DNA from: Escherichia phage vB_EcoM-pEK20
Sequence record: MZ868638.1
Strand: one strand, 5' to 3'
DNA length: 64,000 nt
The translations under genes were made by a program, and so were the position numbers. The notes beneath the pieces are model-generated. The model was not told the origin of the DNA. It saw only the letters and a list, made by a program, of their open reading frames with translations, and did no database searches. Shown in pieces: positions 3,731-51,598 of the stretch; the stretch's first letter is position 1, and each line of letters starts with the position of its first letter.

Positions 3731-4094
3731 GCCCTGGGCGTATGAATACAAGCGTAAATTAATCCCAAATGAAGTACTATTTGGCCCTATTTTAGCTTTA
3801 GCGTTTTTAATCTTTATGTTTATAGGAGCTGTTTTAGATTCCAATAAAGTTATATCGTCTGATGCAGCGTTTTCATTAATGTTCGTCGCACCACTTATTG
3901 TACCGTTTTTATTAATGCCTATTAATTGGGCAGGATATTGGCACCAAGGCCGTCATCACAGAGCCCGATTAAGAGAATGGAAAGTTCAGTGCGCAAAAGC
4001 CCAAGCTCAGTATGATGAAGCTGTTAAAAAGTATGAATATGAAGAAGCTATGGAATTCGTTAAGGAAATAAGATGCAAAAACCTCAACTCTTAA
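3699..4094 (+). CDS. small membrane protein (2 predicted TM segments)
   Basis: first in-frame ATG of listed TTG ORF; hydrophobic segments; C-terminal EFVKEIRC motif; start uncertain (3720 also possible). Confidence 0.4.
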   Translation: MSKPTLYMPSKPWAYEYKRKLIPNEVLFGPILALAFLIFMFIGAVLDSNKVISSDAAFSLMFVAPLIVPFLLMPINWAGYWHQGRHHRARLREWKVQCAKAQAQYDEAVKKYEYEEAMEFVKEIRCKNLNS

Positions 4095-4315
4095 CCGTAT
4101 GGCCTTCTCTTGGTGAGAACGTTCTAATTTTTATTATGAGTATTGGCATGGGATTTGCCTTTGGATTAGTTGGATTTCTTATTGACGGCGTTGTGTTAGG
4201 ATTTATAGGGAACACTGTTGGATTCACAGACCAATGGCAGGACTTACGGTATACACAAGCCTTTGCATCCATCGCATCATTTTGTACTGTAGTCTATTTT
4301 TACTACGATTTATAA
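4073..4315 (+). CDS. small membrane protein
   Basis: ATG ORF, strongly hydrophobic 80 aa. Confidence 0.45.
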   Translation: MQKPQLLTVWPSLGENVLIFIMSIGMGFAFGLVGFLIDGVVLGFIGNTVGFTDQWQDLRYTQAFASIASFCTVVYFYYDL

Positions 4316-4426
4316 ACCATAACAAGAAAAATAAAAAGGTTTACGCTTCTCAAATGATTAGTTATAATGAACTCCTAGCTAGACGTGAAAATGAAACAAT
4401 CGAAAACTTTATTAAGGAATGTAGAA

Positions 4427-4732
4427 ATGAGTAAGATTATTGAAATTAAAGTACCAGAGTTTAATGATGCCAAATCCGCTTCAGATGCAATTTATAAACT
4501 TCTGAATCAAGCTGAACGTATCGAAGAAGAAGCAACAAAGATCGCAGACCAATATGCCGTATCATTTTCTGTAGGTGATTATGGTAGTGGTCGTACTTAT
4601 TATCCTAAGGGTGAAATCGTATCCCAGTGGATGAAAGATGAAATTGAAAATAATGGTGGCGATGTTAAGCGTGAAGGTAATGGTTACATTATTACTGAAG
4701 GTGCTTGGGTTTCGTCTTCTGCGTTGTGCTAA
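4427..4732 (+). CDS. small protein, paralog family with C-terminal GxW[VI]SSSxxC (copy 1)
   Basis: ATG at M15 of listed GTG ORF; C-terminus GAWVSSSALC. Confidence 0.5.
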   Translation: MSKIIEIKVPEFNDAKSASDAIYKLLNQAERIEEEATKIADQYAVSFSVGDYGSGRTYYPKGEIVSQWMKDEIENNGGDVKREGNGYIITEGAWVSSSALC

Positions 4733-13200: not shown

Positions 13201-13659
13201 ATGACTATCAATTCAGACGTTTTTATCCGCCGCAATAAACTCCGTCGAATCTTTGAAACGGAGTTCCGCAAAATAAATGCCAGTATAAAAGATGCTGCAA
13301 AGTCTCTTGGACTACCGGGCTTTCATATCAAGTATTCTCAACATCTCTTAGATCGTGCCATCCAGAGAGAAATAGATGAGAATTACGTTTTTGAATTATT
13401 TCATAAAGTAAAAAATCATGTTAAAGAAGTTGCAGAATTTTTATCAATGCCGGCACGTCCAGATGTTGATGAAGATTTTGTCGAAGGTGTCGAATATCGC
13501 CCAGGCCGTTTAGAAATAACTGATGGAAATCTTTGGTTAGGACTTACAGTTTGTCGCGAAAATCCAGCATTCAAAATGAAGACTCTTCAATGCAGAATGG
13601 CTATTATTAACAATAAACGACTACCAGGAAAAGCTTCTAAAGCAGTGATTAAAATCTAG
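13201..13659 (+). CDS. regB: RegB site-specific endoribonuclease
   Basis: MTINSDVFIRRNKLRR...YSQHLLDRAIQREIDE...LQCRMAIINNKRLPGKASKAVIK matches T4 RegB. Confidence 0.9.
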   Translation: MTINSDVFIRRNKLRRIFETEFRKINASIKDAAKSLGLPGFHIKYSQHLLDRAIQREIDENYVFELFHKVKNHVKEVAEFLSMPARPDVDEDFVEGVEYRPGRLEITDGNLWLGLTVCRENPAFKMKTLQCRMAIINNKRLPGKASKAVIKI

Positions 13660-13667
13660 AGGTAAAC

Positions 13668-14210
13668 ATGAGAAAAGCACTACTCGCTGGTCTATTTGCT
13701 CTTTCATTATCAGCACATAGCTCCGAGCATACTTTTAGTAATGTCCAACTCGATAACTTGAATTATGCTTATCAGTTTGGGGAACAGTTTTCTAAGGATG
13801 GAAAATTTAAAACGCATGAAAATATGCATAAGAAAGGACTTGGATACATAATGGCCGCAATACTATGGCAGGAATCATCTGCCGGTATTAATCTTAAAGA
13901 TAAGAAAGGTCACCATGCGTATGGAATGTTCCAAAATTATCTACCAACAATGAGGGCAAGAATTAACCAACTTGGTTATAATATGACTGATGCCCAAATT
14001 AAGAAAATGCTATCTAAGCGGTCTAATTCAGCCAGATGGGCTTATATAGAATTTTCTTATTGGTTAAATATACATAACGGGGATATAAGGAAAGCCTTAT
14101 CCTCATATAATGCGGGATGGAAGACAAGTGCTGGAAGTAAATATGCTTCTGAAGTCCTAGAAAAGGCTAATTACCTTAAATCAAATAAACTACTGGAAAT
14201 AAAAGAATGA
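13668..14210 (+). CDS. secreted lytic-transglycosylase-like protein (signal peptide)
   Basis: N-terminal signal peptide; WQESSAG...GMFQ resembles Slt-domain catalytic motif. Confidence 0.45.
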   Translation: MRKALLAGLFALSLSAHSSEHTFSNVQLDNLNYAYQFGEQFSKDGKFKTHENMHKKGLGYIMAAILWQESSAGINLKDKKGHHAYGMFQNYLPTMRARINQLGYNMTDAQIKKMLSKRSNSARWAYIEFSYWLNIHNGDIRKALSSYNAGWKTSAGSKYASEVLEKANYLKSNKLLEIKE

Positions 14211-14554
14211 CCAAAATGTTGGCTTTAATAGTTGGCTTGGTTTCATTTAACGCTCTTGCTAATACTACATATACTGATGTAACGGAGTATACAAACAGAA
14301 CGGCGTCTGATTATTGTGGTAAAAGTCAAGAGTGTAAAGTAGATTTTTCACAAAAATTGTTATATGCGTATAAAGACGGAGAAAAAGACGGGGCGTCTAG
14401 TAGGTTCAAGGCGTCTACTTTAATTAAAAGATACTATAAAAAATGGCAAATATTAGAATGCTCGGTGGCGGAACCTAAAGATAAGGCGGCATGCAATTCT
14501 ATGGTGGACCGTCTAGTTGACTCTTATACTAGAGGACTTGTAGCAAGTGATTAA
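14207..14554 (+). CDS. small secreted/periplasmic protein
   Basis: signal-peptide-like N-terminus MTKMLALIVGLVSFNALA. Confidence 0.45.
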   Translation: MTKMLALIVGLVSFNALANTTYTDVTEYTNRTASDYCGKSQECKVDFSQKLLYAYKDGEKDGASSRFKASTLIKRYYKKWQILECSVAEPKDKAACNSMVDRLVDSYTRGLVASD

Positions 14555-27307: not shown

Positions 27308-27781
27308 ATGTTATTATCAGGCGCAAAATATAAAGAAGAAAAACAAAAATTTTATGATGCACAGAACGGTAAGTGTCCTATTTGCCACCGTGAATTAGAC
27401 CCTGATGTTCAAGGTAACCATCTTGACCACGACCACGAATTAAACGGGCCAAAAGCCGGTAGAGTTCGTGGATTACTCTGTAATCTGTGCAACGCAGCAG
27501 AAGGTCAAATGAAGCATAAGTTCAACCGTTCCGGTCTTAAAGGACGTGATGTCGACTACCTCGAATGGCTTGAAGCTCTTCTTGCTTATTTGAAACAAGA
27601 TTATTCTGATAATAATATCCATCCTAATTTTGTTCCAGACAAAACTAAAGAGTTCTCAAGACTAGGTAAAGAGGAAATGATGGCTGAGATGCTTCAAAGA
27701 GGATTTGAATATAATGAATCTGATACCAAAACACAATTAATAGCTTCATTCAAAAAGCAGCTTAGAAAGAGTTTAAAATGA
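27308..27781 (+). CDS. 49: endonuclease VII (Holliday junction resolvase)
   Basis: near-identical to T4 gp49 over whole length (CPICHREL...GLLCNLCNAAEGQ). Confidence 0.95.
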   Translation: MLLSGAKYKEEKQKFYDAQNGKCPICHRELDPDVQGNHLDHDHELNGPKAGRVRGLLCNLCNAAEGQMKHKFNRSGLKGRDVDYLEWLEALLAYLKQDYSDNNIHPNFVPDKTKEFSRLGKEEMMAEMLQRGFEYNESDTKTQLIASFKKQLRKSLK

Positions 27782-29595
27782 AAATTGAAAAAGAAATTGA
27801 AGGATTAATTCATAAAACTAATAAAGATCTTTTGAACGAGAATGCTAATAAAGATTCTCGTGTTTTTCCAACTCAACGGGACCTTATGGCTGGTATTGTG
27901 TCTAAGCACATTGCCAAAAATATGGTCCCGTCTTTTATTATGAAAGCACATGAAAGCGGAATTGTCCATTTCCATGATATTGATTATTCCCCTGCTCTTC
28001 CATTTACTAATTGCTGTTTAGTAGATTTAAAAGGAATGCTTGAAAACGGGTTTAAGCTAGGTAATGCTCAAATTGAAACGCCTAAATCGATTGGTGTTGC
28101 TACTGCAATTATGGCACAAATTACCGCACAGGTTGCTTCACATCAGTACGGCGGAACGACTTTTGCTAATGTAGATAAAGTACTTTCTCCTTATGTTAAA
28201 CGCACCTATGCAAAACATATTGAGGATGCAGAAAAATGGCAAATCGCTGATGCGTTGAATTATGCCCAATCTAAAACAGAAAAAGACGTATACGATGCAT
28301 TTCAAGCTTATGAGTATGAAGTAAATACTCTTTTTAGCTCAAACGGTCAAACGCCTTTTGTAACAATTACATTTGGTACTGGAACTGACTGGACTGAACG
28401 AATTATTCAGAAAGCAATTCTTAAAAACCGCATTAAAGGCCTTGGTCGTGATGGAATAACTCCTATTTTCCCTAAACTTGTTATGTTCATTGAAGAGGGT
28501 GTCAATCTTTATAAAGACGACCCGAACTATGATATTAAGCAGCTTGCTCTAGAGTGTGCAAGCAAAAGAATGTATCCTGATATTATTTCAGCTAAGAACA
28601 ATAAAGCTATCACTGGTTCATCTATTCCTGTTTCTCCAATGGGTTGTCGTAGTTTCTTGAGTGTATGGAAAGATTCGACTGGAAATGAAATTCTTGATGG
28701 ACGTAATAATCTTGGTGTTGTAACACTGAATCTTCCTCGTATTGCGTTAGATTCTTATATTGGAACACAATTCAATGAACAGAAATTTGTTGAGCTATTT
28801 AATGAACGAATGGATCTGTGTTTTGAAGCCTTGATGTGTAGAATTAGTTCTTTAAAGGGTGTTAAAGCAACAGTTGCTCCTATTCTTTACCAAGAAGGTG
28901 CATTTGGGGTTCGTCTTAAACCTGATGATGATATAATTGAGCTATTTAAAAACGGTAGAAGTTCAGTGTCTTTAGGATACATTGGTATTCACGAATTGAA
29001 TATTCTTGTCGGTCGTGATATTGGACAGGAAATTTTGACTAAAATGAATGCTCGTCTTAAGCAGTGGACTGAAAGAACCGGTTTTGCTTTTAGCTTGTAT
29101 TCTACTCCTGCTGAAAACCTGTGCTATCGCTTCTGTAAACTTGATACTGAAAAATATGGAAGTGTAAAAGATGTTACTGATAAAGGCTGGTACACTAATA
29201 GTTTCCATGTTTCAGTAGAAGAAAATATCACTCCGTTTGAAAAGATTTCTCGCGAAGCCCCATATCATTTCATTGCGACTGGCGGACACATTTCTTATGT
29301 TGAACTTCCTGATATGAAAAATAACCTAAAAGGTCTTGAGGCTGTCTGGGATTATGCTGCGCAACATTTAGATTATTTTGGTGTTAATATGCCAGTAGAT
29401 AAATGTTTTACGTGTGGAAGTACCCATGAAATGACTCCTACCGAAAACGGATTTGTTTGTTCTATTTGTGGAGAAACTGATCCTAAAAAGATGAACACAA
29501 TAAGAAGAACTTGTGGTTATCTTGGAAATCCTAACGAACGTGGATTTAATCTCGGCAAAAATAAAGAAATCATGCATAGGGTTAAACACCAATGA
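27778..29595 (+). CDS. nrdD: anaerobic ribonucleoside-triphosphate reductase
   Basis: 605 aa, glycyl-radical motif RTCGYLG and zinc-site cysteines at C-terminus; uninterrupted (no intron). Confidence 0.95.
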   Translation: MKIEKEIEGLIHKTNKDLLNENANKDSRVFPTQRDLMAGIVSKHIAKNMVPSFIMKAHESGIVHFHDIDYSPALPFTNCCLVDLKGMLENGFKLGNAQIETPKSIGVATAIMAQITAQVASHQYGGTTFANVDKVLSPYVKRTYAKHIEDAEKWQIADALNYAQSKTEKDVYDAFQAYEYEVNTLFSSNGQTPFVTITFGTGTDWTERIIQKAILKNRIKGLGRDGITPIFPKLVMFIEEGVNLYKDDPNYDIKQLALECASKRMYPDIISAKNNKAITGSSIPVSPMGCRSFLSVWKDSTGNEILDGRNNLGVVTLNLPRIALDSYIGTQFNEQKFVELFNERMDLCFEALMCRISSLKGVKATVAPILYQEGAFGVRLKPDDDIIELFKNGRSSVSLGYIGIHELNILVGRDIGQEILTKMNARLKQWTERTGFAFSLYSTPAENLCYRFCKLDTEKYGSVKDVTDKGWYTNSFHVSVEENITPFEKISREAPYHFIATGGHISYVELPDMKNNLKGLEAVWDYAAQHLDYFGVNMPVDKCFTCGSTHEMTPTENGFVCSICGETDPKKMNTIRRTCGYLGNPNERGFNLGKNKEIMHRVKHQ

Positions 29596-30062
29596 ATTAT
29601 GATAGATTTTATCCTTGCGATTTTGTGAATGGCCCTGGTTGCAGGGTCGTTCTTTTCGTTACAGGTTGTTTGCATAAATGCGAAGGGTGTTATAATAAAT
29701 CAACATGGAATGCTAGAAATGGTATTCCATTCACAGGTGAAACACTAGAGCAATTAATTGAATGTTTGAATAATGATTATATAGAAGGATTAACTATAAC
29801 TGGAGGAGACCCTCTCTATCCCGATAACAGAGATGTTGTTCATTGCATTGCTCAAACAGTAAAAAATCTTTATCCCAATAAAAGCATTTGGTTGTGGACA
29901 GGATATAAGTTTGAAGATATTAAACAACTAGAAATGCTTAAATATGTTGATGTTATTATTGATGGGAAGTATGAGAAAAATCTTCCGACCAAAAAACTGT
30001 GGCGAGGATCAGATAATCAGCGACTTTGGTCAAATACCGATGGGGTGTGGAAACATGATTAA
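29592..30062 (+). CDS. nrdG: anaerobic RNR activating enzyme (radical SAM)
   Basis: CxxxCxxC-type cluster CLHKCEGCYN; immediately downstream of nrdD. Confidence 0.9.
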   Translation: MNYDRFYPCDFVNGPGCRVVLFVTGCLHKCEGCYNKSTWNARNGIPFTGETLEQLIECLNNDYIEGLTITGGDPLYPDNRDVVHCIAQTVKNLYPNKSIWLWTGYKFEDIKQLEMLKYVDVIIDGKYEKNLPTKKLWRGSDNQRLWSNTDGVWKHD

Positions 30063-45044: not shown

Positions 45045-45680
45045 ATGAAAACTACTCCTATTACTATCGCTATTGACGCAATCATAAAACAAGCTTCTTC
45101 TTTGGCCGCTATGGCCAAAGTAATTAGTCAAAACCCTGCTCGTTATAATGCTATTCTAGAAACTCTTCGACGCCCGGGACTTAGTAATTATGAAAGTCGT
45201 GTAATTATTACAGGTGTGGGTAAGAATGCTAATATTGCAACTAAAGCTTCTGAGACATTTGCTTCACTTGGTATCCCGAGTATGTACTTGAACACCGGGC
45301 ATTATTCTCACGGTGATGCAGGATTCATTGCGCCTAATGATGTGTTGATTCATATTAGTCGTTCTGGTAAAACTGAAGAAATGATAGGCGTGGCTAAGCA
45401 TCTTAAAATGATTCGTCCGAACGTCAAACAGATTCTGTTGCATTGTAACCCAGACATTCCACAAGAAAATGAAGCCCTTTTTGATTACTCTTTCTGTACA
45501 GGCATCGCAGTAGAGGTTGATGAGAATTCTCTGGCTCCGACTATGTCCACTACATTGTTGTTAGCGCTTATCGATACGTTTGCTATCAACCTTTCGTCTG
45601 AACGTGGATTTACCTCTAATGACTTCCTTAAGTTCCACCCTGGCGGTGCACTAGGTGCCATGTTACGAGGCGAACAATGA
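45045..45680 (+). CDS. SIS-domain sugar-phosphate isomerase (arabinose-5-phosphate isomerase-like, no CBS domains)
   Basis: SIS motifs VIITGVGKNANIATKA, LIHISRSGKTEE and KpsF/KdsD-type FHPGGALG. Confidence 0.75.
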   Translation: MKTTPITIAIDAIIKQASSLAAMAKVISQNPARYNAILETLRRPGLSNYESRVIITGVGKNANIATKASETFASLGIPSMYLNTGHYSHGDAGFIAPNDVLIHISRSGKTEEMIGVAKHLKMIRPNVKQILLHCNPDIPQENEALFDYSFCTGIAVEVDENSLAPTMSTTLLLALIDTFAINLSSERGFTSNDFLKFHPGGALGAMLRGEQ

Positions 45681-45820
45681 AAGCAATAACAATAGGACTT
45701 TTACTATTGATGCTTGTCATGACTATCTACTGGAGCTTAACGGCTCCAGTAATGATTCCGACTCTTATAATCGGATGGATTATGATTGGACTACAAGCAA
45801 AGTATGAATGCTTTAACTAG
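45677..45820 (+). CDS. tiny hydrophobic protein (47 aa)
   Basis: ATGA overlap with SIS stop; single TM segment; not in track. Confidence 0.3.
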   Translation: MKAITIGLLLLMLVMTIYWSLTAPVMIPTLIIGWIMIGLQAKYECFN

Positions 45821-45833
45821 AATAGTGTACAAT
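45809..45833 (+). promoter_or_regulatory. middle promoter (MotA box) upstream of nucleotidyltransferase-kinase gene
   Basis: TGCTTTA 45809-45815, 12-nt spacer, tacaat 45828-45833. Confidence 0.55.
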
Positions 45834-45861: not shown

Positions 45862-47550
45862 ATGAAAAAAGCTGTTATTCTTGGTGCTGGACTGGCAACT
45901 CGTTTGTATCCAATAACGCATCATATTCCTAAGGTGCTTGTTAACTATAAACAAGACACTATTCTGAGCAATTTGTATACAATTTATTCTGACCTTGGCG
46001 CAGATGAAATTATTGTAGTAGTTCATTCAAAATTTGCTGAAACTGTTCGAGCTTATTGTGAGCAAGAAGGGTTCAATGTGACTATTCGTACAGTTGATGA
46101 AGCGTATGGTTCCGCTTATGCTCTTGCTAAATTACACAAAGATTTAGACGGCCATAATGTAATTGTTAACTGGTGTGATATTATTCCCGATTTTGGTTCA
46201 TGGTCTTGGAATGTTAACGCAATCTATGTTAAGGGCGACGAATGTCGTTATAATTTCGACGGTGAAAATATCACTAACGTAGGTTCAACAGGTGGTAATG
46301 TTGTAGGAATTTATCAGTTCAAAGACTGGGAATTCTATATGGGTTCTACTGATGAGGAAATTCATGAATACTGCAAAGGACGTGATTTCGTAGAATTCCT
46401 TTACGGCAGCGCATTCAATAAATCAGAGCTTATGAATATCATCGACCTTGGTGATATGCCTAAACTTGAAAAAGCTCATGAAGTTCGTGAACTTAATCGT
46501 AGTTTTAATGCAGTTGAAATTGGCGAAGAAACGGTAACAAAGATTGCTTTAACAGAACAGGGCGTTGCACTTCAAAAAGATGAAGTCAATTGGTATAAGA
46601 AAGTTAAATCAGATTCAGTTCCACGGATTGTAAGTTATCATCCTGGCGGCCACTTTATTATGGAACGCATTAAAGGTAAGCCAGCATTTGAATATATTAA
46701 ATCCAAATCGAGTCTTGCTCGTCCACAAATTGTTGATGCAATTTTAGACGCACTGAAATTCAGCACAGACACTTATTTTGTAAGTCCTGAAACTGTTCGT
46801 CGTGATTTCACTAAAGAATTCTATACGAAAGTTATTGATCGTTGTGAAAGTATTCAACCATTGATTGATTCATTTGGTAAAATCACACATGTGAACTACA
46901 CTAAGATTGGGCGTCTGAAGCCAATGCTGAAACAAGCTTTAGAACACCTTATTCGTTATCATAACCGTTCTCAGGGACAGTACTCTGTTATTCATGGTGA
47001 CCCGAACTTCAGTAATACTATGATTACTGATAATGGTGAAGTCAAGTTTATCGACCCTCGTGGATATTTTGGTGAAACCAAGATTTATGGGCCAAAATTG
47101 TATGATGAAGCTAAAGTGCTTTATGCTGTTTCAGGTTATGATGAATTCAACGCTAATCCGACCTGGGGTCAGTTTACTATTGATGAAACAACTTGTAATG
47201 TGACTATTAACATCAATCCATTAGTTTACAAATATGGAAAGATGAGTTCGTTTAATGAGTATCATCATTTGGCTGTAGCAATTATCTGGATTGCATTAGG
47301 TGGTTATTTCAAGAATAATCCACTTAAAGCGGTAGCCGCATATTATAAAGGTATGGAACTTCTGACTAAGCAATTACGTAACATGGGCCGTGTACTTCAG
47401 GACGGCACTATTAGTTATGATGTAGCAGAACCTGTAACGGCTACTCTGATTACAAAAAATCCTGGTAAATGGGTACTAACTGATAAAGAAACTGGTGTTT
47501 CTTATCGTCCAATCGGTGGCGATATCACTCATCAATGGGAACGAATCTAA
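45862..47550 (+). CDS. bifunctional sugar-1-phosphate nucleotidyltransferase / anomeric sugar kinase
   Basis: N-terminal GAGLATRLYPIT (RmlA/GlmU-type NT); C-terminal HGDPNFSNTMI...IDPRG (APH/choline-kinase-type kinase). Confidence 0.7.
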   Translation: MKKAVILGAGLATRLYPITHHIPKVLVNYKQDTILSNLYTIYSDLGADEIIVVVHSKFAETVRAYCEQEGFNVTIRTVDEAYGSAYALAKLHKDLDGHNVIVNWCDIIPDFGSWSWNVNAIYVKGDECRYNFDGENITNVGSTGGNVVGIYQFKDWEFYMGSTDEEIHEYCKGRDFVEFLYGSAFNKSELMNIIDLGDMPKLEKAHEVRELNRSFNAVEIGEETVTKIALTEQGVALQKDEVNWYKKVKSDSVPRIVSYHPGGHFIMERIKGKPAFEYIKSKSSLARPQIVDAILDALKFSTDTYFVSPETVRRDFTKEFYTKVIDRCESIQPLIDSFGKITHVNYTKIGRLKPMLKQALEHLIRYHNRSQGQYSVIHGDPNFSNTMITDNGEVKFIDPRGYFGETKIYGPKLYDEAKVLYAVSGYDEFNANPTWGQFTIDETTCNVTININPLVYKYGKMSSFNEYHHLAVAIIWIALGGYFKNNPLKAVAAYYKGMELLTKQLRNMGRVLQDGTISYDVAEPVTATLITKNPGKWVLTDKETGVSYRPIGGDITHQWERI

Positions 47551-47936
47551 TGCACCGTGTAGAAAACATGCTTAATCTTTGTTTTGATGTCGATGATTGT
47601 ATAACAGAGTGGAATAACAACCGTGATTACGTGAACTTCAAACCAGACGTCGAAATGGTGACTGCCATTAATGCCCTGTACGATGCAGGGCATACCATAA
47701 CGCTTTACACTGCTCGCGGTATGAAGTCAGTCGGTCCTGGTCGTATAGCAATTGACATTCTCCCAAGTCTGATTCAGAACTTGGCAAACATTGGATTGAA
47801 GTACCATAATTTGCTAACACATAAACCAGTATATGATTGGATTATCGACGACAAAGCTATGCGTCCTGACGAATTCAAAGCTCTTATGAATAAAGGCGAA
47901 TTCGAAACATTTAAATCGTATAAACCGAATCTATAA
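47550..47936 (+). CDS. HAD-superfamily phosphatase
   Basis: motif I LCFDVDDCIT at N-terminus; ATG overlapping upstream stop. Confidence 0.6.
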   Translation: MHRVENMLNLCFDVDDCITEWNNNRDYVNFKPDVEMVTAINALYDAGHTITLYTARGMKSVGPGRIAIDILPSLIQNLANIGLKYHNLLTHKPVYDWIIDDKAMRPDEFKALMNKGEFETFKSYKPNL

Positions 47937-47992: not shown

Positions 47993-49153
47993 ATGAATAC
48001 TTTTAAAATCGGAACGAATTTTGATTTAGCTCTTCTTGATAAAATCGTAGAGCTCAATAAAACTTATCCTAATAGCTTGATAAACGAAGTATACGGCTCT
48101 ACAAGAGAAATGGCTTTTGTAGCAGCCAGACCTGATTTTAGGCTTCCTGACGTTGACAAAAAGATGTTAGAAGATTACGTTAAACGTTGTAACGAATTAG
48201 GTATTTGCTTTAACTATACACTCAACACGATAAATCCTGGTTCAAAAAGAGAACTAGTTGAGTGGAAGAAGAAAGCTATTCAGGATTATGTTCAGTATCT
48301 TTGGTCAATAGGCGTATGGCGTATTACTATCGCTAACCCTGTTGTTATGGAAATTGTTCGTGAAGTCAATAAAGACATTGAGATTGAAGTTTCAACAATT
48401 CTACATGTCGATGCTGTAACTCAAATCAAATACTTGCATGACCAGTATAATATCAAAAAGGTCTGCTGTGGAATTCATAAGAACCGTTCGGTTTCTTTCC
48501 TGAAGCGTGCAGCAGAGTTTTGCAATAAGAACAATATAATATTTGAAGTTCTTGTAAATGAGTTCTGTTCTAATGCTGGTAAAGGGTATACAACACATTG
48601 TAGCTATCGTGACTCTTGCTATATTTTCCATAGTACTGATGTTACCGCTGATGATGCTAAATCCTTAAATGGATATCCAATGCAACACTGCATTAAAGCT
48701 CGTGATACAGATCCATTTAACTGGTTGAGAACTCGTTTTGTTCGTCCTCAAGATTTGAAACTTTATAATGATATTGGTATCACTCAATTCAAAGTTTCAG
48801 GACGTACAGGTAGCACAGACTACATTTTGAAAGTTCTTGAAGCTTATGCTTCCGAAAAATTTGAAGGTAATTTGTTGGAATTGTGGAAGCCTTTAGAGAC
48901 CATTTTCACTCTTGAAAATGAGACCGAGTTTTCACATACGGTAAATATTGAAACCTCTTTGTTAGATGGCTTTTTAGAAAAAAGGTGGTTCAGACATCCA
49001 GATTTCGATTGTGCTAATGAAATCTGTGGGACGACGTGTACATATTGTGAAAGATATTATAAACGTCAATTATCTAAAAATGGGTTATCAGAAAACTCTA
49101 TATCTATTATTGATATAACTAACTCTGACGACGCTTTGAGGTACCCAGAATGA
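47993..49153 (+). CDS. peptidase-U32-family-like protein (putative Fe-S/radical enzyme), function unknown
   Basis: LGICFNYTLNT, NEFCSNAGKGYTTHC and FKVSGRTGSTDYILKVLEAY resemble U32 family motifs; C-terminal Cys cluster CGTTCTYC. Confidence 0.4.
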   Translation: MNTFKIGTNFDLALLDKIVELNKTYPNSLINEVYGSTREMAFVAARPDFRLPDVDKKMLEDYVKRCNELGICFNYTLNTINPGSKRELVEWKKKAIQDYVQYLWSIGVWRITIANPVVMEIVREVNKDIEIEVSTILHVDAVTQIKYLHDQYNIKKVCCGIHKNRSVSFLKRAAEFCNKNNIIFEVLVNEFCSNAGKGYTTHCSYRDSCYIFHSTDVTADDAKSLNGYPMQHCIKARDTDPFNWLRTRFVRPQDLKLYNDIGITQFKVSGRTGSTDYILKVLEAYASEKFEGNLLELWKPLETIFTLENETEFSHTVNIETSLLDGFLEKRWFRHPDFDCANEICGTTCTYCERYYKRQLSKNGLSENSISIIDITNSDDALRYPE

Positions 49154-49388
49154 TTTCTAGAAAAACTTTTAACCACCAACTTAATGAAGAGATTTTGACT
49201 ATGAAAATTAACAGCAACGAACAAATTCTTAAAAAGGCCCTTATGGGCCTGTTTGAAACCAAAGCGGCTTAAAGTGATTAAAGAACCTGTTCAATTGTAA
49301 TACTACGCTGATGCATTTCTTCATAGTGTCCTTGGAAGTATCGATGCCGAAGCTCTACGTTATATCAACATCGCTAAGAAATTCAAAT

Positions 49389-49413
49389 AAGCTTTATGAA
49401 TTGAGTATATAAT
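49389..49413 (+). promoter_or_regulatory. middle-type promoter upstream of gene 42
   Basis: aGCTTTA 49390-49396, 11-nt spacer, tataat 49408-49413. Confidence 0.45.
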
Positions 49414-49432
49414 AAATTGTATTGAGGTAAAC

Positions 49433-50149
49433 ATGGGAAAACATAACACAATGAAATATATTAAAGCCGCAGATTTTCAATCCGCATTTAAAGCTGTCAA
49501 TCGTGAAATTTTAGAAAACCCGGAATTCGTAACTGATTCTCGTATTGGACGTTGTAATGAAATTGGGTCTATGACAGTAGTTGTTGACACTCCATCATCA
49601 TTCAAAATGACCGACCCACGTATTAACCGCATCTCTTATGAATATGCTGAAGACTTCTGGAAGTTTATGGTTTCTGGTGGTACTGATGCAGAAGAAGCAT
49701 TTAAGGCATATCCTAACGTTGCTAAATTTATTTCTAAACCTAAATCAGACGCTTTGCCTGCAAACTTCAACACTTTCTACGGTCCACGAATTGCGGCCCA
49801 ATTACCAGCTCTTTTAAAAGAACTTAAAGAGAAGCCTAACTCTCGAAGAGTTGTGTTTCAAATTCTTGAAAGTTCTGATCAGGCTTTGCTTGATTCGGAC
49901 GAAACGCTTGAATATCCATGTACTGACTCAGTGACTTATTATATTCGTGATGGTAAGCTTTATACCCACTGCCATATGCGTTCTCAGAACTGTGCTGTTG
50001 TTATGCAGTTGGATTTTTATCTCCAAGGAAAATTACTTCATTATATCGCTAACGAATGTGGTGTAGAAGTTGGTGATTATACTCATACCATGGTAAGTGC
50101 CCATGTGTTTGAACGTGATTTTGATTATGTTAAAGGATTCCTTGACTAA
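49433..50149 (+). CDS. 42: dCMP hydroxymethylase
   Basis: thymidylate-synthase-like motifs PNSRRVVFQI and TDSVTYYIRDGKLYTHCHMRSQN parallel T4 gp42. Confidence 0.9.
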   Translation: MGKHNTMKYIKAADFQSAFKAVNREILENPEFVTDSRIGRCNEIGSMTVVVDTPSSFKMTDPRINRISYEYAEDFWKFMVSGGTDAEEAFKAYPNVAKFISKPKSDALPANFNTFYGPRIAAQLPALLKELKEKPNSRRVVFQILESSDQALLDSDETLEYPCTDSVTYYIRDGKLYTHCHMRSQNCAVVMQLDFYLQGKLLHYIANECGVEVGDYTHTMVSAHVFERDFDYVKGFLD

Positions 50150-51048
50150 TGGCTATTTTCCGCGTACCTATCTTGAGTATGCGGTCTTATGAAACTGGAC
50201 AGTATGCTATCCTTAAGGATGGCAACTTCCAACTTCATTTGCACCGTGCTAATCCAGGTGATGTGATTACATATCCACGTAATGCATCTGATATTAAAGA
50301 ATGTGAACGTCTTTTCCCAGAATTTAAGTTTGTTCCATTATGGTATAAAGATAACGCGTATAACACTCGTAAATATTTCTGGTCTGAAAATGAATTTGTG
50401 GTTGATTCATTAATTGCTTATTATGATTGTGATTTTCTAATAACAGATATCACTGGATATGATGGTGCTTTTGATGTAGAATTCAATTTCAATATCACCG
50501 CAGACCCTAATAAACCGCGTTTTTATATTGACGAATTCTTAAAAACCGACATGTTGTCGGTTAATCGTTCACTTCAAACTACTGTGTTGAATGAACGTCA
50601 AAAGGAAGTGCTGGTTAACGCTGGTGCGGATGGTAATAAGATTATCGTAACGCAGAAAGTTATACGTCCTTCCATCATGCAGCGTCTTGTAGGTGATTTG
50701 GCTCCTATTCATCTAGATGGTATTTTTCATCCATTTCGAATTAGTGACCCGTGCTATCGTTTTGAACAAGTGGTTGAATGTGCAATTCAATTAGGCCAAC
50801 CGCTTTATATAACCGATCCAAATAATAGCTTCGACAGAAATAAGTATCCTGAAGAAGCGCTGATTCGAATTTTTAAACCAACTAAAACCGAGTACTATCA
50901 AATTCTTAAAGGACGTCCAAAGATTCAATATTTCGAAAATCCTGAAGAAGTATTCCATCCAGGTCTTGGTGAGTTCATCTACTTTAATGCTTTAATTTCT
51001 TCGCCGTATAATATACCTAAATACGAAGATGTCGTAATCGAGGAATAA
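50149..51048 (+). CDS. hypothetical protein in the beta-glucosyltransferase slot (candidate hmC glycosyltransferase)
   Basis: 299-aa ORF between 42 and uvsX; no similarity to T4 Bgt noted; assignment by synteny only. Confidence 0.3.
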   Translation: MAIFRVPILSMRSYETGQYAILKDGNFQLHLHRANPGDVITYPRNASDIKECERLFPEFKFVPLWYKDNAYNTRKYFWSENEFVVDSLIAYYDCDFLITDITGYDGAFDVEFNFNITADPNKPRFYIDEFLKTDMLSVNRSLQTTVLNERQKEVLVNAGADGNKIIVTQKVIRPSIMQRLVGDLAPIHLDGIFHPFRISDPCYRFEQVVECAIQLGQPLYITDPNNSFDRNKYPEEALIRIFKPTKTEYYQILKGRPKIQYFENPEEVFHPGLGEFIYFNALISSPYNIPKYEDVVIEE

Positions 51049-51049
51049 A

Positions 51050-51598
51050 ATGGCTAAAATTATTTTAGTAGATGGCCCGGATAATGCTGGTAAAACAACT
51101 TTCATTAATGACATAATGGAAATTAGTGAAAGATATGTAAAGATTGATTTCCCTAAACGAACGGTTGATGGACGTTTCGATGTTAAGTCTCGAAATGAAG
51201 TTGGCTGTTTCGAAACGATGCTGAATTATTTAGACCCTACTAAGATTTATCTGTTAGATCGTGGATATATTAGTAACTGGGTTTACGGACGTATTCGACA
51301 AGATGCGGACTCGGTTCTTGACGTTTATGAACAGGATTATGTTCGTCTTTGCCAAAACCATGATGTGTTCACAATTATTTTAACACGTAACGAAATGACT
51401 GAAAGTTTTGAAGACGACCTTATTACTTTGTCTTCATTCGGTTTTAATACAGTAATTTCATATTTTGAAGAGTTTGCAATCCATAACGAAATCCAAACGT
51501 ATCAATTACTTAATCATGATGGTGCTAACAAAGTTATAGGATTTAATGCAAGCGAACGTAATAATTTGATTACAGAAATTATCAAATGGGCTCGTTAA
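51050..51598 (+). CDS. P-loop kinase-like protein
   Basis: Walker A VDGPDNAGKTT; LLDRGY resembles nucleotide-kinase DRx motif. Confidence 0.5.
   Translation: MAKIILVDGPDNAGKTTFINDIMEISERYVKIDFPKRTVDGRFDVKSRNEVGCFETMLNYLDPTKIYLLDRGYISNWVYGRIRQDADSVLDVYEQDYVRLCQNHDVFTIILTRNEMTESFEDDLITLSSFGFNTVISYFEEFAIHNEIQTYQLLNHDGANKVIGFNASERNNLITEIIKWAR

Follow-up and report, generated by a model that had tools for sequence, protein, structure and literature searches.

In this study, we analyzed one gene in a stretch of 64,000 nucleotides of the genome of Escherichia phage vB_EcoM-pEK20 (sequence record MZ868638.1), which is referred to here as the window and is part of the genome of an RB69-like (Mosigvirus) T4-type phage. 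The gene, located at positions 47993-49153, consists of one open reading frame (ORF) on the plus strand, which starts with the ATG at 47993 and encodes a protein of 386 amino acids (aa). The identical start is used in the annotation of Escherichia phage HY126. At the DNA level, the region shows 99.9% identity to HY126 and 98% identity to about 150 other Mosigviruses. It is under purifying selection, with 22 synonymous and 1 non-synonymous codon changes within Mosigvirus. Most GenBank records annotate the gene product as 'peptidase' or 'collagenase-like protease'. As had been stated in an earlier, sequence-only reading of this DNA, the gene is embedded in a module; this module is a DNA-hypermodification cassette. 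The gene order is gp43 DNA polymerase, isomerase, AfhE, HAD phosphatase, U32 protein, a 40-aa ORF, a thymidylate synthase (TS) homologue, arabinosyltransferase, kinase and UvsX. The cassette comprises the following features:

45045..45680, plus strand: SIS-domain D-arabinose-5-phosphate isomerase
45862..47550, plus strand: bifunctional arabinose-phosphate kinase / UDP-arabinose pyrophosphorylase (AfhE of HY126)
47535..47936, plus strand: HAD-type phosphatase (AfhF of HY126; the HY126 start corresponds to about 47550)
47993..49153, plus strand: U32-family protein, 386 aa, orthologue of RB69p050 / HY126 XAN60477.1; proposed O2-independent, prephenate-dependent cytosine C5-hydroxylase
49150..49272, plus strand: 40-aa ORF (HY126 XAN60476.1), overlapping the U32 stop codon; no Pfam match
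49273-49432: non-coding DNA of about 160 nt after the 40-aa ORF
49433..50149, plus strand: TS homologue, a flavin/O2-dependent 5-hydroxy-dCMP synthase; orthologue of RB69 gp48, 99% identical
50149..51048, plus strand: first DNA arabinosyltransferase, 299 aa; orthologue of RB69 gp46:47
51050..51598, plus strand: thymidylate-kinase-like nucleotide kinase; orthologue of RB69 gp45

The TS homologue starts about 280 bp downstream of the U32 gene. It had been named gene 42 in the sequence-only reading, but it is a 5-hydroxy-dCMP synthase and not a dCMP hydroxymethylase, and readings of the window which assume hydroxymethylcytosine chemistry therefore need to be revisited. RB69 DNA was shown to contain mono- and di-arabinosylated 5-hydroxycytosine and not hydroxymethylcytosine (Lee et al., NAR 2026, PMC13326640). 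RB69 gp48 makes 5-hydroxy-dCMP, binds flavin and incorporates 18O from 18O2 (PMC13326640). For the HY126 enzyme, O2 was confirmed as the oxygen source in vitro by He et al. (Nat Chem Biol 2026), according to the account given in PMC13326640. The same base is made by Acinetobacter phage DLP3, which has no U32 protein (PMC13326640). An extra, undefined step on the sugar or the base, as had been suggested for the gene, is not needed: (poly)arabinosyl-5-hydroxycytosine explains the modification of RB69 DNA completely, and together with the case of DLP3 this leaves no additional chemical step to explain. In Table 1 of PMC13326640 the gene is labeled 'Sugar or heterocycle reductase', on fold matches only, and the Discussion cites RlhA and the tRNA hydroxylation pathways merely as unrelated routes of pyrimidine hydroxylation. 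In the accessible literature on these phages, with two relevant subscription papers outside its scope, the gene is not discussed beyond 'homologs among peptidases', and no work joining U32, prephenate or chorismate mutase with phage hydroxycytosine was found.

For the assignment to a protein family, the window protein was compared with Pfam, in which it matches PF01136 (Peptidase U32) with 42.2 bits and an E-value of 7.3e-11, thereby passing the gathering score of 22.4. The orthologues of Serratia phage LC53 and Shewanella phage Thanatos-2 likewise exceed this score. The sole NCBIfam match was UbiU (NF047963), which reached 18.5 bits compared to a cut-off of 440, i.e., the window protein is not UbiU. 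Identity to the four E. coli U32 paralogues is 15-22%, and profile-profile comparison with them (hhalign) gave a probability of 96.9% over 211 columns. An AlphaFold2 model calculated from 80 homologues (pLDDT 93.2, pTM 0.91) shows the U32-type TIM-barrel fold. By family and fold, the window protein is a divergent, distant member of the U32 family, as had been assumed from sequence motifs before. The earlier reading was also right in naming O2-independent hydroxylases as a known type of U32 protein. No match to a glycosyltransferase or sugar-nucleotide enzyme family was found in Pfam or NCBIfam; a glycosyltransferase or other non-U32 fold was sought by the profile comparison and in the AlphaFold2 model and was not found. 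A sequence search of the PDB with the single protein and with the 80-sequence profile gave no real match. A BIM1 entry with an E-value of 0.0085 was discarded as spurious. The structure search of the BFVD viral library returned solely the protein's own orthologue.

An alignment of 80 sequences (47-87% identity) revealed nine invariant cysteines, namely C158, C192, C203, C209, C233, C340, C345, C349 and C352, while C177 is kept in 77 of the 80 sequences. Many arginine and lysine residues are invariant too. The earlier suggestion of a putative iron-sulfur (Fe-S) enzyme agrees with the presence of many invariant cysteines in a U32-family protein; we infer Fe-S binding and regard the protein as a putative Fe-S-type metalloenzyme. 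In U32 hydroxylases of the RlhA, TrhP and UbiU/UbiV type, a 4Fe-4S cluster is bound by a conserved four-cysteine motif, CX6CX15CX3/4C (Pelosi et al. 2019). According to the profile alignment, only the first and second of these canonical cysteines have counterparts in the phage protein, which are C203 and C209 with the spacing CX5C. In the hhalign alignment, E185, C203 and C209 of the phage protein correspond to E161, C169 and C176 of RlhA. These three RlhA residues, together with the C-terminal C580 and C611, are required for the formation of 5-hydroxycytidine (ho5C) (Kimura et al.). The phage protein has a C-terminal cluster as well, C340-x4-C345-x3-C349-x2-C352, which is invariant in the 80 sequences, shows no residue-level alignment to C580/C611 of RlhA and is slightly variable in spacing in more distant members (Cx3-4Cx2-3Cx2C). 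A 10-residue beta-hairpin (insertion of residues 193-202), with C192, is placed before C203. With two groups of invariant cysteines, two metal sites are plausible.

The register of the central cysteines depends on the alignment. MAFFT, applied to the phage protein and the four E. coli paralogues, places C192 on the third canonical cysteine; the profile-profile register, in which C203 and C209 take the first two positions, is more convincing, and the ambiguity is noted here. At residues 340-352 (DNA about 49010-49048), the pattern C-x4-C-x3-C-x-Tyr-C has a core, CX3CX(aromatic)C, which resembles the cluster motif of radical-SAM proteins. A radical-SAM reading of this motif was set aside, as a fourth invariant cysteine is present and a radical-SAM family match is absent.

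The gene context in related phages links the U32 gene to the formation of prephenate. In other T4-like genera, U32 is directly followed by a gene for a type II chorismate mutase (CM), and the two overlap at the stop codon of U32. The product of chorismate mutase is prephenate. The Pfam matches of these CM proteins lie above the cut-off in Serratia phage LC53 (E 1.7e-11), Enterobacter phage Entb_45 (E 2.4e-10) and Thanatos-2 (32.8 bits, cut-off 27). The slot which is occupied by the 40-aa ORF and non-coding DNA in the window is filled by CM in Winklervirus, Kanagawavirus and phages of Klebsiella, Yersinia, Proteus and Edwardsiella. CM sits between U32 and the TS homologue wherever the neighbors can be read from the annotation. 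Thanatos-2 has a rearranged cassette (TS homologue, glycosyltransferase, kinase, U32, CM) with the U32-CM pair still together. A tblastn search with the CM of LC53 found 54 of 50,697 phage records, all of them T4-like phages of Enterobacterales or Shewanella, i.e., of the U32-bearing lineages. It was described before that RlhA-dependent formation of 5-hydroxycytidine in 23S rRNA requires prephenate (PMC5727448), and isotope labeling showed that prephenate is the oxygen donor for UbiU/UbiV (PMC10990095). In the window itself, no significant CM remnant was detected in 49150-49432 by tblastn with three phage CMs, by six-frame inspection or, for the 40-aa ORF, by Pfam; a recognizable decayed CM gene at this position was rejected.

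The subfamily extends far beyond the T4-like phages. A word-indexed homologue search revealed some 250 more relatives with a length of about 360 aa and 48-58% identity, and when 1.84 billion representatives were searched exhaustively with a profile, 1,703 matches were obtained, 481 of which had an E-value of 1e-30 or below. These 481 subfamily representatives are counted at 50% identity. Loci were gathered from 7 metagenomic contexts, from 185,579 species genomes (13 loci) and from IMG/VR (49 viral loci), and their six-frame ORFs were scanned with hidden Markov models (HMMs) of each cassette component. The 72 U32-carrying loci, which span 7-10 kb on either side of U32, were grouped at 90% identity into 46 clusters, 4 of which are T4-like and 42 non-T4-like. 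The contigs are phage-like, with genes for holin, amidase, primase, RecA, DnaE-type polymerase and Mu F, and some of them are 190-466 kb long. No TS homologue was detected within the 7-10 kb in any of the 42 non-T4-like clusters. The supplied Pfam annotations of the seven metagenomic loci likewise contain neither a Thymidylat_synt nor a TET domain. By HMM scan, the other components occur in the 42 non-T4-like clusters as follows:

First-arabinosyltransferase homologue: 25 of 42, 13 within 700 bp
Thymidylate-kinase-like kinases: 14-18 of 42
AfhE homologue: 13 of 42
CM and/or DAHP synthase: 11 of 42, 10 within 700 bp
Arabinose-5-phosphate isomerase: 10 of 42
dCMP deaminase: 9 of 42
UDP-galactopyranose mutase: 4 of 42

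The homologue of the first arabinosyltransferase is the commonest neighbor of U32 in non-T4-like phages. CM or DAHP synthase, sometimes fused, lies directly beside U32 in 3 of the 4 T4-like clusters and in 10 of the 42 others, and such shikimate-pathway genes adjoin U32 in five or more distinct arrangements. This linkage speaks strongly, if indirectly, for a dependence on prephenate. The identity of the DAHP synthase is secure from sequence comparison: the protein of locus L014 matches with an E-value of 2.6e-70 as DAHP synthase versus 2.9e-17 as KDO8P synthase, and the DAHP synthase of locus L021 carries a fused chorismate mutase domain (E 8.9e-13).

Several of these loci show further features. 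In a contig of a Bacillota metagenome-assembled genome (L008/L019), a second, very divergent U32 paralogue with 22% identity to the window protein is encoded at 13227-14360, 4 kb from the first. Its neighbors are genes for a radical SAM/SPASM protein, a nucleoside 2-deoxyribosyltransferase-like protein, NT5C, a deoxynucleoside kinase and an NMN transporter. The pair could represent a two-subunit arrangement like UbiU/UbiV or a second modification. A UDP-galactopyranose mutase (TIGR00031, E 9e-115) is encoded near U32 and glycosyltransferases in L015 (12073-13179) and also in L049, L054 and L080; in L015, a weak match to a TAGT-type glycosyltransferase lies directly downstream of U32. The gene content of these loci points to galactofuranosylated hydroxypyrimidines similar to those of Rhizobium phage RL38J1, with the difference that no TS homologue was detected. 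In L007 (466 kb) and L010 (60 kb), a UDG domain adjoins or is fused to a split DnaE-type polymerase, and a dCMP deaminase gene lies immediately upstream of U32. A conserved 250-aa protein without family match is encoded downstream and is 58% identical between both contigs.

The distribution of the two genes was compared with the oxygen requirements of the hosts. Among cultured phages, U32 was found in 221 records, and the hosts are all Enterobacterales or Shewanella, i.e., facultative anaerobes. The TS homologue was found in 377 records, including 57 Acinetobacter and 22 Rhizobium phages as well as Tenacibaculum and Sphingomonas phages, which infect aerobic hosts. None of the Acinetobacter, Rhizobium, Tenacibaculum and Sphingomonas phages with the TS homologue contains U32. 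Acinetobacter phage Konradin shows the same cassette order, but the stop codon of the HAD gene abuts the start codon of the TS homologue, i.e., exactly the U32/CM slot is gone. All 13 matches from the genome collection belong to anaerobic or gut-associated lineages, which include Erysipelotrichales, Oscillospiraceae, Romboutsia, Gastranaerophilaceae, Tannerella, Phocaeicola faecalis, colon Clostridia and Angelakisella. Acinetobacter is outside the top ten host names of 2,864 NrdD-bearing phage records, which is no proof of absence and was not used as evidence. Upstream of the cassette, the window also encodes endonuclease VII and an anaerobic ribonucleotide reductase with its activase:

27308-27781: endonuclease VII, upstream of NrdD
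27778-29595, plus strand: NrdD, anaerobic ribonucleotide reductase
29592-30062, plus strand: NrdG, radical-SAM activase of NrdD

With NrdD and NrdG, the phage is equipped for DNA synthesis without O2, whereas its sole characterized cytosine hydroxylase needs O2.

Some additional features of the cassette were observed. A small ORF of about 47 aa is located at about 45679-45822 between the isomerase and AfhE. The annotations of HY126 and LC53 contain it too, its position is conserved across genera, and the note in LC53 reads 'transmembrane segment'. In LC53 (L002), a gene for a NUMOD3 homing endonuclease (3852-4490) lies between the HAD phosphatase and U32, which is absent from the window. A promoter and terminator scan around the U32 gene revealed nothing beyond the shuffled expectation.

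Taken as a whole, we consider it rather likely that the U32 protein is an O2-independent, prephenate-dependent cytosine C5-hydroxylase, which would act probably at the level of dCMP and provide an anaerobic route to 5-hydroxy-dCMP. The O2-independent parallel route is favored by the linkage to CM and DAHP synthase, by the proximity of deoxynucleotide genes and of the gene for the first glycosyltransferase and by the absence of U32 from phages of strict aerobes. A mononucleotide as substrate is favored by the frequent kinase, dUTPase and dCMP deaminase neighbors. The enzyme would hydroxylate C5 of cytosine without O2, with prephenate as the presumed oxygen donor, as was proposed for RlhA, TrhP and UbiU/UbiV. 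5-hydroxy-dCMP could then be made in parallel by the flavin- and O2-dependent TS homologue in air and by the U32 protein under anoxia, and both routes would feed the shared path of nucleotide kinase, DNA polymerase and arabinosyltransferases. In phages of anaerobes, U32 appears to be the sole hydroxylase of the cassette; both enzymes are encoded by phages of facultative anaerobes, and only the O2-dependent one by those of strict aerobes. For the larger, phage-borne subfamily, the chances are about even that its members are O2-independent, prephenate-dependent deoxypyrimidine C5-hydroxylases, which phages of anaerobes, gut jumbo phages among them, use for the hypermodification of their DNA with glycosyl-5-hydroxypyrimidines, that enterobacterial T4-like phages keep one of them beside the later O2-dependent enzyme, and that no U32 enzyme with a small soluble substrate was known before. 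The gene and its similarity to U32 are already known from databases and one published table. New are the functional proposal, the linkage to CM and DAHP synthase, the large phage-borne subfamily with its non-canonical cysteine pattern and the distribution among phages of aerobes and anaerobes.

Several points weigh against this proposal. Beyond the membership in family and fold, everything stands on comparative genomics, and we infer prephenate use, substrate and O2 independence alike. The canonical motif CX6CX15CX3/4C was found in none of 250 full-length subfamily members, with RlhA and TrhP as positive controls, so that the predicted Fe-S binding rests on another set of invariant cysteines. 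Mosigvirus, the lineage of the window, has no CM and would have to rely on PheA/TyrA of the host. There are E. coli phages with the TS pathway which lack U32, e.g., Dhakavirus VR5, which makes U32 accessory and not essential, and the correlation between aerobic hosts and absence of U32 runs one way only. Since only flanks of 7-10 kb were covered in the non-T4-like loci, a TS homologue may lie elsewhere in those genomes. Finally, reconstitution of hydroxylation in vitro was achieved for no member of the U32 family (PMC10990095).

The first alternative keeps the same chemistry and moves it to another substrate, i.e., to cytosine in DNA, as RlhA acts on rRNA, or to dCTP or dUMP instead of dCMP. 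The characterized U32 enzymes of nucleic acids act on polymers, and in the megaphage-like relatives a dCMP deaminase, which makes dUMP, is encoded immediately upstream. We regard this alternative as unlikely, though to be taken seriously, as frequent neighbors like dedicated nucleoside monophosphate kinases and dUTPase/dCTP deaminase fit a mononucleotide product which needs phosphorylation. T4-type phages destroy dCTP, so that their DNA receives little unmodified cytosine, which also argues against a substrate other than dCMP. The dCTPase is listed in PMC13326640.

A step of the sugar branch, or a redox step on the sugar or heterocycle as in the published table label derived from fold matches, would fit the position of the gene between those for sugar activation and base modification and its TIM barrel, which is common to many sugar enzymes. 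However, this is improbable. RB69 carries plain arabinose on 5-hydroxycytosine, DLP3 and phages of the Konradin type make the same with the same cassette but without the gene, and isomerase, AfhE and AfhF already complete the sugar pathway. The linkage to CM and DAHP synthase makes no sense for the activation of a pentose, and many relatives without sugar-activation genes still keep the nucleotide genes.

T4-like phages encode tRNAs, and the closest characterized relatives of the protein, RlhA and TrhP, are RNA-modifying enzymes which follow the same cofactor logic. The U32 protein might thus hydroxylate RNA, forming 5-hydroxyuridine (ho5U) in tRNA or ho5C in rRNA of the host or encoded by the phage, and tune translation during infection. 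This appears distinctly improbable, because the gene is consistently found in DNA-modification and deoxynucleotide cassettes, where it is paired with the homologue of a DNA glycosyltransferase, both DUF3656 of RlhA and the C-terminal domain of TrhP are absent, and U32 is confined among cultured phages to lineages with the 5-hydroxycytosine pathway. A peptidase or collagenase, as implied by the historical Pfam family name and the annotations, or an inactive relic is highly improbable, since nothing in the gene context points to proteolysis, the catalytic basis of the 'peptidase' activity ascribed to U32 proteins is obscure, and a relic does not fit with strong purifying selection and nine invariant cysteines.

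If the proposed role in anaerobic cytosine hydroxylation is true, phages with glycosylated 5-hydroxycytosine would have two routes of hydroxylation, flavin and O2 versus U32 and prephenate, which would mirror the aerobic/anaerobic enzyme pairs for ubiquinone and for ho5U in tRNA. The ability of RB69-type coliphages to replicate in the anoxic gut would thereby be explained, despite the O2 requirement of the known hydroxylase. Hypermodification with hydroxypyrimidines would be predicted to be widespread in viromes of anaerobes and to be missed by the TS homologue as the present marker for 5-hydroxycytosine. A single-chain U32 protein acting on a mononucleotide would also be more tractable for in vitro reconstitution of the U32/prephenate mechanism than systems with ribosome precursors, tRNA or membrane-bound quinone intermediates. 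The question matters for phage therapy and engineering, as it concerns the status of DNA modification under anaerobic conditions.

Compared with known systems, a partner in function would be the 5-hydroxy-dCMP synthase of RB69 (gp48) and HY126, whose product and pathway the U32 protein is proposed to share, but which is unrelated in fold and cofactor (TS fold, flavin, O2). The TS homologue is present in phages of strict aerobes without U32, whereas none was detected near U32 in anaerobe-associated phages (7-10 kb). Mk0906 (PDB 5D88), the only crystal structure of a U32 protein, shows 14% identity to the phage protein, which differs by the beta-hairpin insertion (residues 193-202) and a cysteine-rich C-terminal extension of about 100 residues. 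UbiU/UbiV belong to the U32 family and are the anaerobic counterpart of flavin/O2 monooxygenases (UbiI/H/F), which perform the same hydroxylations; prephenate is their oxygen donor. They form a heterodimer with one 4Fe-4S cluster per subunit, bound by four cysteines, and act on a lipid substrate with UbiT as carrier, whereas the phage protein consists of one chain, in which the invariant cysteines form two groups. TrhP (YegQ), which is responsible for ho5U34 in tRNA, performs an O2-independent C5-hydroxylation of a pyrimidine, like the role proposed for the phage protein. It works in parallel with the O2-dependent TrhO, a dual-route logic like that proposed for the phage. TrhP acts on tRNA and has the canonical motif CX6CX15CX3C and a C-terminal domain, both of which are missing in the phage protein. 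RlhA (YdcP), the E. coli 5-hydroxycytidine synthase for C2501 of 23S rRNA, is larger (653 aa), contains DUF3656 and acts on a pre-50S particle, while the phage protein of 386 aa, with about 22% identity, lacks DUF3656 and is proposed to act on a deoxynucleotide. The CX6C of RlhA is replaced by CX5C in the phage protein, which has no CX3C pair. RlhA depends on prephenate and on Fe-S biogenesis, and each of the two proteins has an extra C-terminal cysteine cluster. Both have the U32 domain in common, and RlhA adds the hydroxyl group at C5 of cytosine, as is proposed here for the phage protein.

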